Shown in pieces: positions 16,555 through 50,500 of a stretch of DNA of 50,801 nucleotides. The stretch's first letter is position 1. Each line of letters starts with the position of its first letter. This stretch comes from Spizellomyces punctatus DAOM BR117 (lineage: Eukaryota), in NCBI GenBank assembly GCA_000182565.2, contig KQ257461.1; one strand, given 5' to 3'. The translations under genes and the position numbers were made by a program. The notes below the pieces were generated by a model. The model saw only the letters and a list, made by a program, of their open reading frames with translations. It was not told the origin of the DNA and did no database searches.

Positions 16555-16636
16555 CTCCCAGACGGGGAATCGAACCCCGATCTTCCCCGTGCTGTCAACT
16601 GACAGGGGGAGATACTAACCATTATACTATCTGGGA
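16555..16636 (-). tRNA. trnD-GUC: tRNA-Asp(GUC) with 10-nt intron (16590-16599)
   Basis: Minus strand TCCCAGATAGTATAATGGTTAGTATCTCCCCCTGTCA-[GTTGACAGCA]-CGGGGAAGATCGGGGTTCGATTCCCCGTCTGGGAG. Cloverleaf, A/B boxes, anticodon GTC and a canonical 37/38 intron. Confidence 0.96.
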
Positions 16637-17153: not shown

Positions 17154-17235
17154 CTCCCAGACGGGGAATCGAACCCCGATCTTCCCCGTACTGCCGATTG
17201 ACAGGGGGAGATACTAACCATTATACTATCTGGGA
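17154..17235 (-). tRNA. trnD-GUC: tRNA-Asp(GUC) with 10-nt intron (17189-17198)
   Basis: Exons identical to the 16555-16636 copy, with intron ATCGGCAGTA. T6 terminator at 17126-17131. Confidence 0.96.
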
Positions 17236-33917: not shown

Positions 33918-34819
33918 ATGCCCCATTGGCAAACAATGGGTCTACAGCACCTGCTCCTCATGTTGCTGGGTTTGACCTTGCTGTCATGCCCAGCAACATT
34001 CGGAAAAATGACAGCCGAACAAAAACGGATTCAGAAAGAACTTGCCGATAAGGCGGACAAGGAGATCATGTTTTTGGACCACAACGTTTTGGATACAGTG
34101 ATTCAGAATGAAGCTTGGCTGGTCTTTTATGGGGCGAATTGGTGTCCATATACTCAACGGTGAGATCTAATCATTATGATTCAGGCATGGAAAGCCGATA
34201 AACTGACAACCGTTCAATGTAAACAGGTTCACACCCAAATGGCTCGAAGTGCAAAACCGATTCCTCCAAAAAAAGTACGCAGACCGGGGCATCCACATTG
34301 GAAAAGTCGAATGCAGTATACCGGACGTTTACCATGGTGTAGCGGACTTTTGTACCAACCACGGGGTGGACGGGTTTCCTACCGTCAATGTATACATTAA
34401 CGGGACACTCATTGAGGAATACCCGGAGGCAGATGAGATTGATCCTTTGATGTCATATATTGACCGGTTGGTGGTCAAGTATGAGGAGAAGAAGGCGGCA
34501 GAAGCGTTGGTAAAGGCTCAAGCACAGAAAGCGGATGCAAAGACTAGCAAGTTGGACAACGTGGAAATGAACAAGACATTGGCGCAGGCGCCTGTTGAAA
34601 ACACACTTGTTCAGCACGTTAGTAGCTACATAATTGATGCATACCTCGAACATCTTGCTCTGGATATTGCGCTAACGTCTGCTCTGTAAATAGTCCAAAT
34701 CCAATCCAGCTCCCTACCTCATCGTTGCGGGTGGCCTGATAGCCAGTATGTGTGGCATCATTCTCTACCGACGACGGCAGGCCGCATTAAAGGGAGCCTA
34801 CCGTCGTGTCGATTTGTGA
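33918..34819 (+). CDS. Secretory-pathway thioredoxin/PDI-fold type I membrane protein with CxxT motif
   Basis: Signal peptide, WLVFYGANWCPYTQRFTPKW, IGKVEC, GVDGFPT. Last exon gives a TM segment YLIVAGGLIASMCGIILY and the tail RRRQAALKGAYRRVDL. Confidence 0.85.
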
Positions 34820-36770: not shown

Positions 36771-37373
36771 CTTGAAGTGATCGGATATGCAACGACGAAA
36801 ACGGGTGGGGAAACCAGTTGCTTTATGCGATTTTATAAATGCATCTGTTCCATACTGCACGTGTGCGCACACACGCCAAGTAAACGGGAAAAAAACAAAA
36901 AGATAGCACACTTCCGCTGTTGCAAAAACCTCACTTCAAGCAAATTGTGGAATAATTTGTTTGTATTCGTTGGGTGTCCAAAAAGTAGCACGCGGTCGAT
37001 GCTTAAGTAATCGACTTTGGGCGTGCAGTTTAACCCCGCTGGTTGGCCTTTTCGTTTTTATTTTTTTCAAGGCGATGATAGATGGGATTTCAACTCATTT
37101 TCGGCAAAGGGCTTTTCACGAGTTACTTGATGACTTTTAGCAGAGGTATTGTTGAGGTCAGGAATGGCCATTGGTCCCGGCAGTCGAGTCCAAAGCGGCT
37201 GGCAGCATGAGTGGTAACAAAAAAAGAGAGATATCCCAAATTACAATTACCCTGTAATATCCCTATATCCACAAAACTTTTGCACGCTGTTTTATTCAAA
37301 GCCACATTACAAGAAATGTTTCATAACACCAGCTATACAGCCCATATCCTTTGGCTACTTATGTCGGTCTACT

Positions 37374-39807: not shown

Positions 39808-40735
39808 GGTTGTTAAAAGAGTTGCTTGGTTGGTTTCAAACAAATGGTATAGCAGCAGAGAGCTAATGTTCTTTTAAAAAAAAAAAAAAAGAACACCCTA
39901 CGGGGAGAAGCTATTTCACCCACTCCTTTTATATCCCGCAGAGACTGATAAGAAAACATCCTTTACAAATGGCACCCTTTTTGTTCCGCCCCCCATTTTC
40001 TAAAAGGGCTTTTTGTGAAGGGGGGCATGACCTTGTGTGATAAGTGAGTTGATTGGATCTGTGCAAAAGGCGCACTCCAAGTCTAAAAACGCGACTTGTC
40101 TGCTGACCCTCTCAAACGGATGCTGTGACGCGCGAGTTAAAAGTGGCATAAAAGCAGAAGGTTTGGGGACCTTTTAGGGGGCTTGCAACGGTCCATTGTT
40201 TGCATTGCAAATGCTTTACAAATGCGAGCCCAGAAGCAGGAGGGCATTACAAGATATGCCTACTAGTAAGGCGGATGCGAAAGCCAAGTACCGGTCACTT
40301 TAACAAGACCTCGGCGCCCAACTTTCATCTTCTACTGTCCTCCTGCACTGGTAAGCTCGCCAATGTTCCAACATGGCCGGCCACCCTTTGTTCAAACTGG
40401 AGATTGTTGCGGACAGAGACAAGATACATATCAAACTACCACACACACATGATGCGACCCTGTCCGTGTTCTACAGAAGAAACCTTTATGGAAAACGTCA
40501 AAGGCCCAGCAGCAGAGCAAAGCCAAATGAGTTTGCAAAAAACAGCCGATCGTTTGATGCAAATAGCCAAAGTTGTCCGTCGTGCCAAAGCGTGACGTAA
40601 CCCGCGTGCAATTCCCCCTTGACGTTGCTTGAAATATAAAATGGCGAGGGCTTCTCTTTCCCCGCCCTTGAACTCACCACCACAAAGTACGGACCCGCCT
40701 TCAACAATACCTTCATCCATCACACAGTGCAAACC

Positions 40736-45294: not shown

Positions 45295-47405
45295 CTATTG
45301 CTCTTGCTTTTCTATCGTGGAATCTCGACGGCGGGACTTTGAGAGTGGGGACGCTGCTTGTGGGTACACCCGTCGTAGATCCGCTAAAACCTTGCTCTTG
45401 TCGGGGGTGTTTGGAAGGGATGGCAAGGATTGAAAGACGTGGCGTCTGGGTTGATCCTTAATTATCTTCGCATGCTCATTTAGTATATTCTAGGATAGAT
45501 TTGTTTAGTTTCCGAAAGAGAAAAGAGCAGAACACCCTCGCCTTACCCGTAACGCGCCAAAACCCATCAAACAGCGGCCGACATTTGCACTATTTTCAAA
45601 TGAGTTGGCAATTGGAACCTTGCCCAACTGAACGAAAAAGCACAACTCGTCCACTATTTGCACTTTATATATGTGAAAGCAAAGCCCATCTATACAAAGG
45701 GGATGGATGTTAGACATATAAATTAGAGTAACGTGCACCGTATTACCTGGCGATATGGCCGTATACATTCGAGGCTGAATCTCACCCCAATCAAATTGTA
45801 ACGTATCCGCTTTAAGCTGCCGTAAGGCCCGCTGTAATCCATCTCCTAATTCCAGCTTTCGCTTTGTTGATGATGCGAAAGGGCCTTTTAATTCAGCTAC
45901 TAGTATGATTCGCCCATGAGCTGATATGGTGATGTCTGGTCTTTTTCTATCAGCCATCGTAGAGTCTCTAAAATACTGGTTCAGTAAGAGGTACACATCA
46001 AGCGAGATCCGCATGCTTACATAGCTATGTCCCATCTTTTGTTCCTTACTAAACGGTTAAAATGCGGAAGACAGTATTTGGCTGTATACGACGCTTCTGA
46101 CTGGCGCTGCGGCAATTTAACATGTAAATGACGATACCTGCGCGGAAGTTCAAAGACAGTAAGGCGCCTGTGCTTAGTAAACCAGATGAGGAGCAACTTA
46201 CAGTGATCTAAGCGCATCTCGCTCATCAGATGTAAGGTCACCCAAGTCTACTTCTTGCTCATAATCTTCAGTAATTTCATCCTCCAACATCGCAACTTCC
46301 AAACTATTCACAGCTTGTACCAAAGTCGCGCGGGGCGGAGTCACAAGAGGTGTCCACATTTCACAGTCAGATGCGAAATAACGGTAGATATTCGACCATT
46401 CGGCGATGCTAACATAGGGCTGATAGCACGAAGGCATGCATCTGTCTACTAATAGACCGCGCTTTAAAGAGCTTTGACATGTCTTAGTTATAATTGTAGG
46501 AATCAGACTAAGATTGACTTACACAATAGATACAGGGTCACTCTCCTCGAAACATCGATCATTCTCGACTTTTTGTTGATCCATATAGATGTCCCGTATG
46601 ACCAAACGCACTAAACGACTGCAATTGACACCTGCTACTTGCAGATCTGTAGCTAATTGCGTGTCGCGTCCGGATAGTATATCCACCAGACCGGGTATTT
46701 CCTCCATTGGTAATCTTGTAGGAAGGCTTTCGAGAGTAGCGTGATCCTCATCATAATGGTTAATTTCATGTCTGATTATCCTGTTATATGGATGGTACCG
46801 AGCATTTTGGGTGCGGTACGATGTCGTTCCAATTGCCAAGGTTTCTTGAATAGTCCCATCTTCAAAGCGTGTGCTAACGACTTCCAAACCGCGTGTAAGG
46901 CTCTGCTGTTGAATATTCGCCAAAATCTCTTCTTGTTCAAATATAATATTGAGTTCCTTGGACTCCGTAGCCAAAACCTTCCACGCATCATAGCATATTA
47001 GACAAAATGATAGTCAAAATGAAATAAGAAAACAAGCTCTACGCTTTGACCGGTCCGGGGCGCACCACATGCCCCAGGAGAGCGCACTGTCCTGGGGTTG
47101 AACACGGTCTAAACTTGGGGTCGGCGCACCGACTGATATCACTACCTTCAGGCCGCAGTGTGAAGGAGTGCCCTATGAGCTTGCTTCTACATAGATATTA
47201 CCTTCTCGAGAACAGGGCGATCTTCTTCCTGTACCAATCGTCTGAAAATCCCTATCCATCGGCCCTTTCTCGTTCGCCAAGGAGTTGCCGGTTTATCCCA
47301 TTCTCCATAAATTAGCGGTCTATACTTTTTCACAAATTGCACTAATGAGAACGAGTCCTTCAAGTGTTGCTGGACAGCTTCGTCCCACGGGCAATCCTGG
47401 TTCAT
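45295..47405 (-). CDS. PD-(D/E)XK restriction-endonuclease-fold protein (Crinkler/REase-like), ~7 exons
   Basis: Splicing at GT-AG sites joins ORFs 47187-47471, 46519-46974, 46198-46437, 46017-46241 and 45505-46035 in frame. The product has QSEASYTAKYCLP...RKRPDITISAHGRIILVAELKGP (E...PD...ExK). The start codon is uncertain. Confidence 0.65.
47027..47188 (-). ncRNA. Candidate structured intronic RNA (multibranch, UGCG tetraloops)
   Basis: Closing stem 47177-47188/47027-47039 and several internal hairpins capped by TGCG on the minus strand, inside the 224-nt intron 46978-47201. No known family recognised. Confidence 0.45.
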
Positions 47406-47591
47406 CGTAATGGGCTGCAAGGAAAGCGGACGGGTTCCGACATCGACGTGTTTTACAGGCAGTAAGCACATCAGTATACATACCGAATTCGGCAGTCCGA
47501 AAATCTGGACGCGTTACTCCCACTGGACAATACAACAACAGTATTATAGATAATTAACAAATAGAAACAAACGCATCCGGCCCAATCTATG

Positions 47592-50500
47592 TTATTCTCG
47601 CTCCTCTTGCATGGTACCAGTAACCTTGCCTTCAGTAGGTGCAACAATCGTCGCGGCCGAATCTGCTCGTTGCTGCCCAGGTAAATCAGCATTATCTACA
47701 ATAGTGACATGTAAAGGAATAAAATAGTCAGAGACCATTCAAGGCAAAACCATAAATTGACCCATATTACCACTGGCTGGAGGATCAATAGCTTGACCAC
47801 TTCCATTCTGACCACTCGAACCTACGAGAATACAGAAAGAACCGTTATAAAACAATGTAATGTGAACCATTCACACAGTACTTACCATCCACAACCTCAT
47901 TTCCTCGCTCCCCATCCCAGCCATTCACCTGTTGTTCCCGTCTCATTGATTCGGGATCAATATCCCATCCTTCATAGTCATCCCCAACAAGCCCAACCCC
48001 AAAAGCAGCTAAAACCTCATCAACAGCGCCAATGACATCATCCACAATCTCACTCTCCAGTTCTAATGCAGTCCCATTTATATACTTTGATAAACTCTCT
48101 TCTAGGATTCTTCCCACGCGGTCTACAATCGGCGCACGGTCGACAGCTGGGTAATTTCTTTGCAAAAAGGGTGCCAAGACGCTTAGAACGGTCAATTTGA
48201 TGACGTAAAGGGAGNNNNNNNNNNNNNNNNNNNNNNNNNNNNNNNNNNNNNNNNNNNNNNNNNNNNNNNNNNNNNNNNNNNNNNNNNNNNNNNNNNNNNN
48301 NNNNNNNNNNNNNNNNNNNNNNNNNNNNNNNNNNNNNNNNNNNNNNNNNNNNNNNNNNNNNNNNNNNNNNNNNNNNNNNNNNNNNNNNNNNNNNNNNNNT
48401 TGGGTTGGAGCAGGTGTGGTCAGTCGGTCGTGTGATCCAACATGTCTGTCAAACAGATATCCCCGGCGACGGAGAAAGGAGCAGCAGACATATACCCATG
48501 AGTGCGAATCGTAAAGCAAAGTGAAAACAAAGCTGAAAAATCTTTAACCCCAAATCACCTACCCTTTCCCTCCTCCTTCGCCCTCCTTGTTCCCCTGACT
48601 ACACCTGATTCTCCTCGAAAAATCGCCCCCTCTTGGTTGGACGCTCCTCACCTCTACCCCTTTCACGCTCTAACCCTTCTGCCTCTTCCAAAACGTCATC
48701 GAGAGCAAGTAACAGTCTCTGTCTCAAATACGTATTGCCCAATTTCTCCGCGCCCCGAAAGAGTTGTAGTAAAAAATAGGGCTCCGTCTCGTGCTTGGAT
48801 ATGAGACTCGCAGCGCAGCGGTAGATTTTGTCTTTGCACTGGTCAAAGAGACTGGGGAGGAGCGAATGAACGAAGCATTAGCAATCCCAACTTGTGCCAA
48901 CAACCACAGAGTGCAATCTGTGTACAACCGTTTAGCTTCGGGAGTAATACTCGTCTCCATATCATTTCCACTCATATTGGTTCCCTCTGCGTAGACATCT
49001 GGTACCTCCTCCTTAATATCATATTCATCAACCTCGGCAGCTTCCACCCACGACGCATCTCCACGGTTCTCGATAAACCCTCCTTCTTTATACTGATTCA
49101 GTCCTCGGACGGCTTGATCGACCTCAACAGACCTGTACTGGCCTGGAGATGCACTCCGATGGTCGTAGGGCAGCAGATTATGGACTGCAGGGCTATTGGA
49201 AGAGGGTTGGCAGGAAATAACACAAGAACTCCCGCATGGCAGTTATCTTACAAATTTGGTCCCGGACGTTTCGAATTCGCGTTGGATGGACCGTTACCTG
49301 CACGCGCGCGCGAAGGGGCAGATTGCACTTGTTCGATATTCCGCTCTTGCTGAAGAGACGACTGTCCGACAGACTATTCAAATATCTGCATAAGCGCGCA
49401 TATCAACCTTCTACTTGAGCGCACTCAACCACATACCGCCTGCGTCTTCAGCAAGTTCCTAAAATATGTCACCTTGTTCTAAAATTGCACAAACGTCAGT
49501 CTCAACCACAATCCTTAAGGAATACCATGATCCCAAACCTGAACTTGAACCAACTCCCCGAGTTGCCCCTTCAACCGGGCAAATAACTCGTCAAATTGCT
49601 GTTTCTGTTCATCCGTCGCCATTTCTCGAGCTTTTTCAACAGTCCCCATTTGAGCAAGAACCTCCTGTTCAAAGAATCAGCGCTAGTCGAAGACGTGAAT
49701 GAAAAATAGAGACGAACCTGCATTCCTTGTTCAATGTTCTGGATGTCTGCGTCACTGACGTCCTCGGGAACGCTTTGATCAACTCGTTGTTCAGCGTTTC
49801 CAGCGTAGTAGTGGAGATGGGACGGAACTCTTGGCTCTGCACGTCTCATTTGACCATTCCCCCCGACAGAGGCTGCCTCTAACCGCCTCATCAACTCTTC
49901 CAGAGCGAACTCTCTCGGGTCCTCGTTCTGTTGAAAATGTACATTTGCGGCTTCCGCTACCCGGTGTTGATCCGACATTGCAGAGTCCAGATTGGCGAGT
50001 TGGTCGACGCTTGCGACTGTAACGTTCTCGGCAGGATAAGCATCCTGAAGAGCTTTCTTTTTTGCATCCAGGCCTCGTTTTATATCTTCAAGAAATGCAA
50101 GTTCACGACGGAGGGCTGCCACCTTGGAGTGATCTTGCTGCTCGGCGTCTGTCAGCATCTCCAATGTTTGCTTCCCCGTTCTTTGTTCCCCAGAAACAAT
50201 ATCGCGTTCCCCAGGGTCAATATCGTCAGAGCCCTCATAACCCCTCATAGCCTTAACAATCGCAAATTGATCTCTCAATTCCTCCAGCTCTGCCTGTCTC
50301 TCCGCGAATACGCTCAACTGCTCATTAGCCCTCTCTTCATTACGTTCGTATTGTTCTCTAAGTGCTTGGAGCTGTCGGAGTTGCGTATCACGAACTTCAT
50401 GCATTTGCTTCAACTCCACTAGCTGCTTTAGCGCAGGGCTGACTTCGAGCTCCGAAGAGGCGATTGCGTCAATTGCTTTCATAATATCATCGATTTCCGC

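Follow-up and report, generated by a model that had tools for sequence, protein, structure and literature searches.

A self-folding GC-rich element in the first intron of SPPG_06500, a gene of the chytrid Spizellomyces punctatus

We analysed a stretch of 50,801 nucleotides from contig KQ257461.1 (assembly GCA_000182565.2) of Spizellomyces punctatus DAOM BR117, a soil chytrid; this whole stretch is called the window below, and all positions refer to it. Positions 45295-47405 hold, on the minus strand, the coding region of the gene SPPG_06500, whose first intron contains a GC-rich element of 162 nt (47027-47188) that is predicted to fold on itself as RNA. The element is transcribed as part of the pre-mRNA, is removed together with intron 1 and is non-coding. 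We read it as a foldback or otherwise structured insert within a spliceosomal intron, closed by a putative helix of the zipper type, and as such it belongs to a kind that is already known; it is not a demonstrably new system. As far as is known, it is a single, unconserved locus.

SPPG_06500 and the removal of its first intron

The translated exon adjoining the element on its downstream side is 100% identical to the uncharacterised protein SPPG_06500 (P0003) of S. punctatus DAOM BR117. A script that required the exact 534-residue protein returned six GT..AG introns of 224, 51, 64, 53, 57 and 57 nt, and the junction in P0003 across intron 1 joins ...LEK directly to VLA.... The parts of the gene that matter here are as follows.

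45295..47405, minus strand: coding region of SPPG_06500, 534 aa in seven coding exons; the last open frame is 45295-45489
47202..47405, minus strand: first coding exon (P0001, 68 aa)
47196..47201, minus strand: 5' splice site of intron 1, GTAATA; the same hexamer is found at intron 5 of SPPG_06500
46978..47201, minus strand: intron 1, 224 nt, starting with GTAATA and ending with AAG; this splice solution reproduces P0003
46523..46977, minus strand: exon 2 (P0002, 152 aa)

Four public runs, including X1, X2, X4 and X6 and all consisting of contigs, were compared with positions 46400-47600 of the window. A transcript contig from X1 (2806 nt, depth 158) omits exactly the 224-nt intron 1 plus the 51-nt intron that follows it. 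The intron 1 joint of this contig lies at 46975 to 47200 (cut +2), with ends that read CT..AC on the plus strand and hence GT..AG on the gene strand. The 51-nt intron is likewise omitted from a contig of the RNA library X6. Together with the junction in P0003, the X1 contig bears out the placement of the element inside intron 1 of the coding sequence that had been proposed in a first-pass annotation of this DNA, made from the sequence alone. The same annotation had pointed out that one minus-strand frame is open across the segment, and that a coding exon would overturn its proposal. Two open stretches of 52 aa are indeed present on the minus strand, but translation continued from exon 1 into intron 1 would end at a stop after four codons, and the segment itself is removed by splicing; since the X1 contig skips intron 1, the element is not a coding exon. 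Positions 47015-47178 have no cover in X1, and contig-type runs of this sort cannot reveal a small RNA.

A rhizosphere-metagenome contig of 259 nt (X4) spans 46866-47125 with two substitutions and one deleted base. Because it covers part of the element, the insert is genuine natural DNA and not an assembly artefact. The shares of X2 and X4 in the comparison were also considered as extra copies of the element and rejected: X2 spans 46400-46576 only, and X4 represents the same locus plus two short GC-rich chance pieces.

Two further observations concern the region upstream of the gene. Just before the start codon, a GTATGT...CAG stretch on the minus strand (47416-47481) resembles by eye a further intron, in the 5' untranslated region; the X1 contig begins at 47387 and so does not cover it. 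About 800 nt upstream of the start codon, at approximately 48210-48420, there is a run of N that marks an assembly gap (349 N in the window, read as X in all frames).

Anatomy and predicted folding of the element

Within the element, an outer helix is predicted to close two arms that carry three strong hairpins, here termed H1, H2 and H3. Helix probabilities, in this list and throughout, are thermodynamic predictions from the partition function.

47027..47188, minus strand: GC-rich self-folding element, 162 nt, 58% GC
47177..47187, minus strand: 5' arm of the outer (closing) helix, 11 bp, intron positions 15-25, pair probability 0.90-0.95
47029..47039, minus strand: 3' arm of the outer helix, intron positions 163-173, with two G-U pairs that exist on the transcribed strand only
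47140..47170, minus strand: hairpin H1, 10 bp with one bulge, capped by a 10-nt loop in which a single C-G pair closes UGCG, probability 0.99
47120..47133, minus strand: hairpin H2, 5 uninterrupted bp capped by a UGCG tetraloop, probability 0.99
47048..47109, minus strand: enclosed arm, in which a 5-bp helix (47048-47052/47105-47109) surrounds H3 and a weak fourth UGCG site
47072..47097, minus strand: hairpin H3, in which 8 uninterrupted bp, a 1x1 internal loop and 2 further bp lead to a UGCG tetraloop, probability 0.98
47058..47067, minus strand: weak fourth hairpin, probability 0.11
46997..47001, minus strand: candidate branch-point motif from a motif scan, with branch A at 46998 (intron position 204), 20 nt from the 3' splice site

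The helices and CGCA sites of the first-pass annotation were all recovered at the positions it gave. It was also right that G-U pairs of the outer stem are restricted to the transcribed strand, where there are two of them, and that the stem at 47061 is weak. Its description of a GC-rich core between AT-rich flanks corresponds to 58% against 29% GC, and the closing helix, with the better folding of the transcribed strand described below, agrees with the discrete module of about 160 nt that it had put forward.

The ends of the element are 13-nt inverted repeats that match at 11 of 13 positions by manual count, and in the sense RNA they give 11 contiguous pairs, including the two G-U pairs. The interior is made up of local palindromic hairpins and is not one long foldback. 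Nearly all of the hairpin stems are Watson-Crick palindromes and are thus present on both strands, as expected from an origin at the DNA level. Relative to its flanks, the element is the strongest GC island in the 50.8-kb window (0.62 versus 0.31). What remains of intron 1 when it is subtracted is 62 nt long with 29% GC, as compared with 51-64 nt for the other five introns, and this remainder retains the 5' site, a single branch-like motif and the 3' site. Of the options offered by the first-pass annotation, a small foldback insertion fits this anatomy best. Two copies of the 8-mer GGCGCACC lie in the element, and the rest of the window has none. The possibility that a two-hairpin unit had been duplicated in tandem was considered and rejected, as the two halves share just this 8-mer and 180 of 2000 shuffles score equally.

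The sense (minus-strand) RNA of 47027-47188 has a minimum free energy (MFE) of -65.9 kcal/mol and a z-score of -3.19, and none of 200 dinucleotide shuffles was as stable. The corresponding values for the plus-strand RNA are -63.4 kcal/mol and -2.44, with 2 of 200 shuffles as stable. The MFE structure of the sense RNA has a frequency of 0.066. Three contexts were compared, namely the isolated element, the complete intron and 501 nt of pre-mRNA, and in each of them the sense RNA gives pair probabilities of 0.90-0.99 for the outer helix, the enclosing helix, H1, H2 and H3. For the plus-strand RNA, the values for the outer and the enclosing helix are 0.57-0.65, falling to 0.0 in the 501-nt context.

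The element is real and non-random, yet its fold energy alone would not single it out. When the window was scanned on a 160-nt grid, no segment overlapping the element was among the top 15 on either strand, since the grid segments break up the outer helix; the exact element lies at about -2.8 standard deviations, as estimated from the grid regression plus its MFE. A shuffle test in a 256-nt context was not significant (z -0.63), and equally unusual folds occur elsewhere in the window, for example at 40190-40400 on the minus strand (z -3.13). The latter is the most unusually stable fold on the GC-corrected grid, at -78 kcal/mol over 211 nt, with 1 of 200 shuffles as stable. At 33955-34004 there is a 22-nt inverted repeat with a 6-nt spacer and 82% complementarity, situated in a region that folds well on both strands.

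CGCA starts at 47061, 47083, 47125 and 47154, giving four sites in the element, all of which read U-G-C-G on the transcribed strand, in keeping with the UNCG class of tetraloop hairpins. The MFE structure contains three identical UGCG tetraloops. Among 1000 dinucleotide shuffles, none had at least three identical tetraloops and 2 had two. If CGCA loops are tabulated only where at least two Watson-Crick pairs close them, three of them fall in a 65-nt span inside the element, versus 25 across the remaining 50.6 kb; the site at 47154 is missing from this table because of the two-pair threshold. As UNCG loops closed by a helix, H2 and H3 are solid, H1 has one closing pair and the fourth is weak. 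Only in H1 is the loop closed by C...G; H2, H3 and the weak fourth site have G...C instead. It is the C-G closing pair that gives UNCG loops their exceptional stability, and this pair is thus lacking in three of the four sites. Hairpins or palindromes with a CGCA/GCGC core are also present at 36863-36876 (6-bp stem) and 49415-49428 (5-bp stem). Among window hairpins with a stem of at least 5 bp, CGCA is the commonest tetraloop (3 of 56), small numbers that are probably due to chance.

Proposed origin and role of the insert

The explanation that we favour, and in which we place about half of our confidence, is that an ordinary short intron received a lineage-specific foldback insertion, which is tolerated because it loops itself out. 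According to this scheme, 162 nt of self-complementary, GC-rich, non-coding DNA would have inserted into an AT-rich spliceosomal intron of about 62 nt in SPPG_06500. The sense RNA would fold on itself, such that the 11-bp terminal helix closes the two arms with their three strong hairpins, and this outer helix would act like the zipper stem of long yeast introns. The hairpins would then be passengers, to which we assign no function of their own. A zipper-like outer helix would account for the continued splicing of intron 1 even though it is four times as long as is usual in this gene.

The predicted geometry is consistent with such a role. If the element is looped out, 14 nt separate the 5' splice site from the helix and 30 nt separate the helix from the predicted branch A, which leaves a linker of 44 nt. 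[quoted passage not shown] Within the last 45 nt of intron 1, no branch-like motif other than the candidate is present. The positional rules for yeast zipper stems, as set out in the part of PMC12350175 available to us, are at least 10 nt, at least 20 nt, 42-85 nt in total and at least 6 bp. With the predicted helix and branch point, the values here are 14 nt, 30 nt, 44 nt and 11 bp, in agreement with all four rules, as for Saccharomyces cerevisiae zipper stems such as those of RPS17B and RPL7B (PMC12350175 and 10.1101/2025.03.14.643126, both in excerpt). In contrast to the yeast examples, the host is a chytrid and the other introns of the gene measure only 51-64 nt; moreover, the looped-out part is a compact GC-rich hairpin bundle and not generic intron, and the helix is known from prediction.

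If this explanation is correct, the locus would offer a natural, non-yeast example of a large insertion being tolerated in an organism with short introns: the insert would fold away behind its closing helix, and the distance from 5' splice site to branch point would stay normal. This would bear on intron growth, and on how insertions of the introner or MITE (miniature inverted-repeat transposable element) type become harmless. The inserted DNA could have come from a foldback or MITE-like mobile element, from an introner-like element or from repair filler DNA, and we regard membership of a repeated family and a unique insertion as about equally probable within this explanation.

Several points weigh against it. 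The zipper-stem role is deduced from geometry, from a predicted branch point and from rules established in S. cerevisiae. Three identical UGCG tetraloops (0 of 1000 shuffles) would not be expected of a random insert, all four CGCA sites are oriented so as to read U-N-C-G on the transcribed strand, and the global fold holds on the sense strand only. Taken together, these features hint at selection at the RNA level. Further points against the insertion are the absence of a second copy from the window, and from the pattern searches of metagenomes, prokaryote genomes and viral contigs and the search with one translated frame that are described below, as well as the lack of a clean target-site duplication beside the inverted repeats.

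The hints of RNA-level selection speak for a different explanation, in which the element is a functional cis-acting RNA module: the array of UGCG hairpins would serve as a multivalent platform for an RNA-binding protein that tunes splicing or intron retention. The binder could possibly be the product of the gene itself, and retention of the intron would lead to the stop four codons beyond exon 1. The density of CGCA loops, the repeated 8-mer, the sense-only outer and enclosing helices, the common orientation of the CGCA sites and the early stop on read-through all fit this idea, and yeast introns with comparable regulatory structures exist according to the parts of two reports that could be consulted (10.1101/2025.03.14.643126, PMC13232506). 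However, no Rfam match and no homologous copy was found in the searches below, the strong stems are plain palindromes that occur on both strands, equally unusual folds lie elsewhere in the window, and the host protein has a predicted fold like that of DNA nucleases and is not a known RNA binder. On balance we consider such a module unlikely. Improbable, in our judgement, is its more specific form, a chytrid-specific regulatory RNA domain in which three to four identical UGCG loops bind a protein that controls removal of intron 1 and thereby autoregulates the gene, the binder possibly being the PD-(D/E)xK-fold product of the same gene. Were the hairpins a protein-binding array, chytrids would have their first described case of a structured regulatory RNA in an intron, and with autoregulation a gene of a nuclease family would carry its own intronic RNA sensor. 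S. punctatus is transformable, according to the available part of PMC7213984, so the idea of a protein-binding array is testable.

Alternatively, the element could be mobile and present elsewhere in the genome as well, whether as a MITE-type foldback that entered the intron or as an introner-like sequence to which intron 1 owes its existence. We consider this, too, unlikely, though slightly less so than the cis-acting module. As to origin, both overlap with the insertion that we favour; all of the gradings given here are judgements. Like MITEs and foldback elements in introns, the element is small (162 nt), non-coding and of foreign base composition, with short terminal inverted repeats. It differs from them in having no demonstrable target-site duplication and no second copy found in our searches, and in an interior built of local hairpins. 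Next to the helix ends there is no direct repeat of at least 3 nt. Shifting the borders by one or two bases allows a TA dinucleotide on both sides, as chance would lead one to expect in flanks of 29% GC. Very few DNA transposons are reported in S. punctatus, as far as the accessible part of PMC5751038 goes, which argues both against this alternative and against the foldback insertion that we favour.

No second copy of the element was detected in the 50.8-kb window by pattern search, repeat finder or blastn-short. The S. punctatus genome (assembly ACOE01) comprises 24.13 Mb (PMC4991717). The window amounts to 0.21% of it, and the missing copy therefore excludes only families of more than about 1400 copies. 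When intron 1 was compared with the other introns and the rest of the window, the sole similarity was a 31-nt match of its AT-rich flank at 779-807 (E 0.003). The pattern of H3 gave 0 matches in metagenome, prokaryote-genome and viral collections. The terminal-repeat pattern matched two loci in metagenomes, in one and the same Tara Oceans sequence, which is coding-like and proved unrelated on alignment. The plus-frame translation of the element, one of three open frames, had no candidate among 5.8 billion proteins.

With fungal introner-like elements, as described in the part of PMC3609843 at hand, intron 1 shares a length above that of regular introns (224 versus 51-64 nt) and a stable predicted structure. 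Such elements, however, are defined by many near-identical intron copies in unrelated genes, of which there are none among the introns of SPPG_06500 or in the window, and the structured part here is an island within a complete-looking short intron. That the residual 62 nt already look like a complete intron argues against the introner version. A literature search for introners in Spizellomyces or chytrids produced no relevant paper. In the Hypoxylaceae, internally symmetrical (stw)introns also have terminal inverted repeats that pair in the RNA and lack a flanking duplication, to judge from the portion of PMC8469720 that was available. Their repeats, however, are 45-55 nt long and reach the intron ends, and a nested intron is formed; the repeats here measure 13 nt and are internal to the intron, in which nested splice sites are not apparent. 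A further conceivable relative is the mitochondrial double-hairpin element of chytrids, a phrase that is absent among the literature matches listed. A combined search for Spizellomyces, hairpin and spliceosomal intron found nothing relevant by title or abstract.

The discrete size of the element, the terminal helix that unites its 5' and 3' ends, a run of U directly after the 3' arm and a well-defined fold (MFE frequency as above) would also suit a separate small non-coding RNA gene housed in the intron, whether released by processing of the lariat, as intronic small nucleolar RNAs are, or transcribed independently. The U run, however, belongs to the pyrimidine-rich tail of the intron. When 46000-48200 was searched by cmscan against Rfam 15 at E up to 10, the three weak matches did not overlap 47027-47188, and ARAGORN found no tRNA in the element. 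We hold such a gene to be rather improbable. By eye, the element shows no canonical C/D or H/ACA boxes and only a loose likeness to internal polymerase III promoter boxes, and the splice sites of the intron are not of the U12 type; we give these impressions no weight. A scan for bacterial promoters and terminators returned 0 sites, which is not meaningful for a eukaryote.

The host protein and its family

A profile search of 1.84 billion representatives collected 42 proteins of the SPPG_06500 family. The ten of these that were looked up are all from chytrids (Spizellomyces, Fimicolochytrium, Geranomyces, Gaertneriomyces, Phlyctochytrium, Borealophlyctis and Nowakowskiella), and from this sample the family appears to be restricted to chytrids. 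The family is marked by an RPD...ExK motif and has at least three paralogues in S. punctatus, SPPG_02396 and, as the third, SPPG_07653 being the others besides SPPG_06500; an orthologue is present in Gaertneriomyces sp. JEL0708 (P0005). No papers on SPPG_06500, SPPG_02396 or SPPG_07653 were found by name in the literature search.

Among 35 relatives, R358, P359, D360, E374 and K376 are the only nearly invariant columns, and they conform to the PD...(D/E)xK pattern. An AlphaFold model built on the 35-member alignment had a predicted local distance difference test score (pLDDT) of 79.8; a first model from 3 sequences was unusable (38.9). Intron 1 maps to the poorly conserved N-terminal part of the protein, where pLDDT is below 70. 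In VIA-align, the model matched the restriction enzymes BpuSI (Z 8.9, 151 residues aligned, root mean square deviation 3.8) and DrdV (Z 7.5) and a fragment of HsdR (Z 7.9), and also NucC, EcoRI, Hjc and McrC-type chains at Z 4.9-6.5, over residues ~300-480. The top two matches in VIA-align are human mitoribosomal chains, with Z 11.0 and 10.1, above the restriction-enzyme nuclease domains. Foldseek gave no match in the PDB at E up to 0.001. No curated family was assigned, as the Pfam family HSDR_N scored 13.1 bits (E 0.089) against a cut-off of 25.1, there were 0 nuclease family matches among the 35 relatives, and a sequence-profile search of the PDB returned only a centrosomal protein (E 0.78). 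The protein is thus plausibly of the PD-(D/E)xK nuclease fold, and the description of the host as a nuclease with which the first-pass annotation began is plausible at the level of predicted fold and motif.

It is this co-location with a nuclease-fold gene, and nothing further, that would favour an RNA antitoxin, cofactor or guide of the PD-(D/E)xK protein; a self-cleaving ribozyme belongs in the same category. Since the RNA is discarded with intron 1 and has no match to a ribozyme family in Rfam, we consider these possibilities very improbable. For the antitoxin or cofactor, the ribozyme and the splicing switch that had been entertained from the sequence, no result came out in favour.

At the gathering score, the Rfam scan of the whole window yielded two tRNAs only. 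These are two genes on the minus strand at 16555-16636 and 17154-17235, each of 82 nt, 95% identical and 599 nt apart. Both score 52.2 bits against the Rfam tRNA model and are assigned no anticodon by ARAGORN, and for this reason both probably carry an intron in the anticodon loop.

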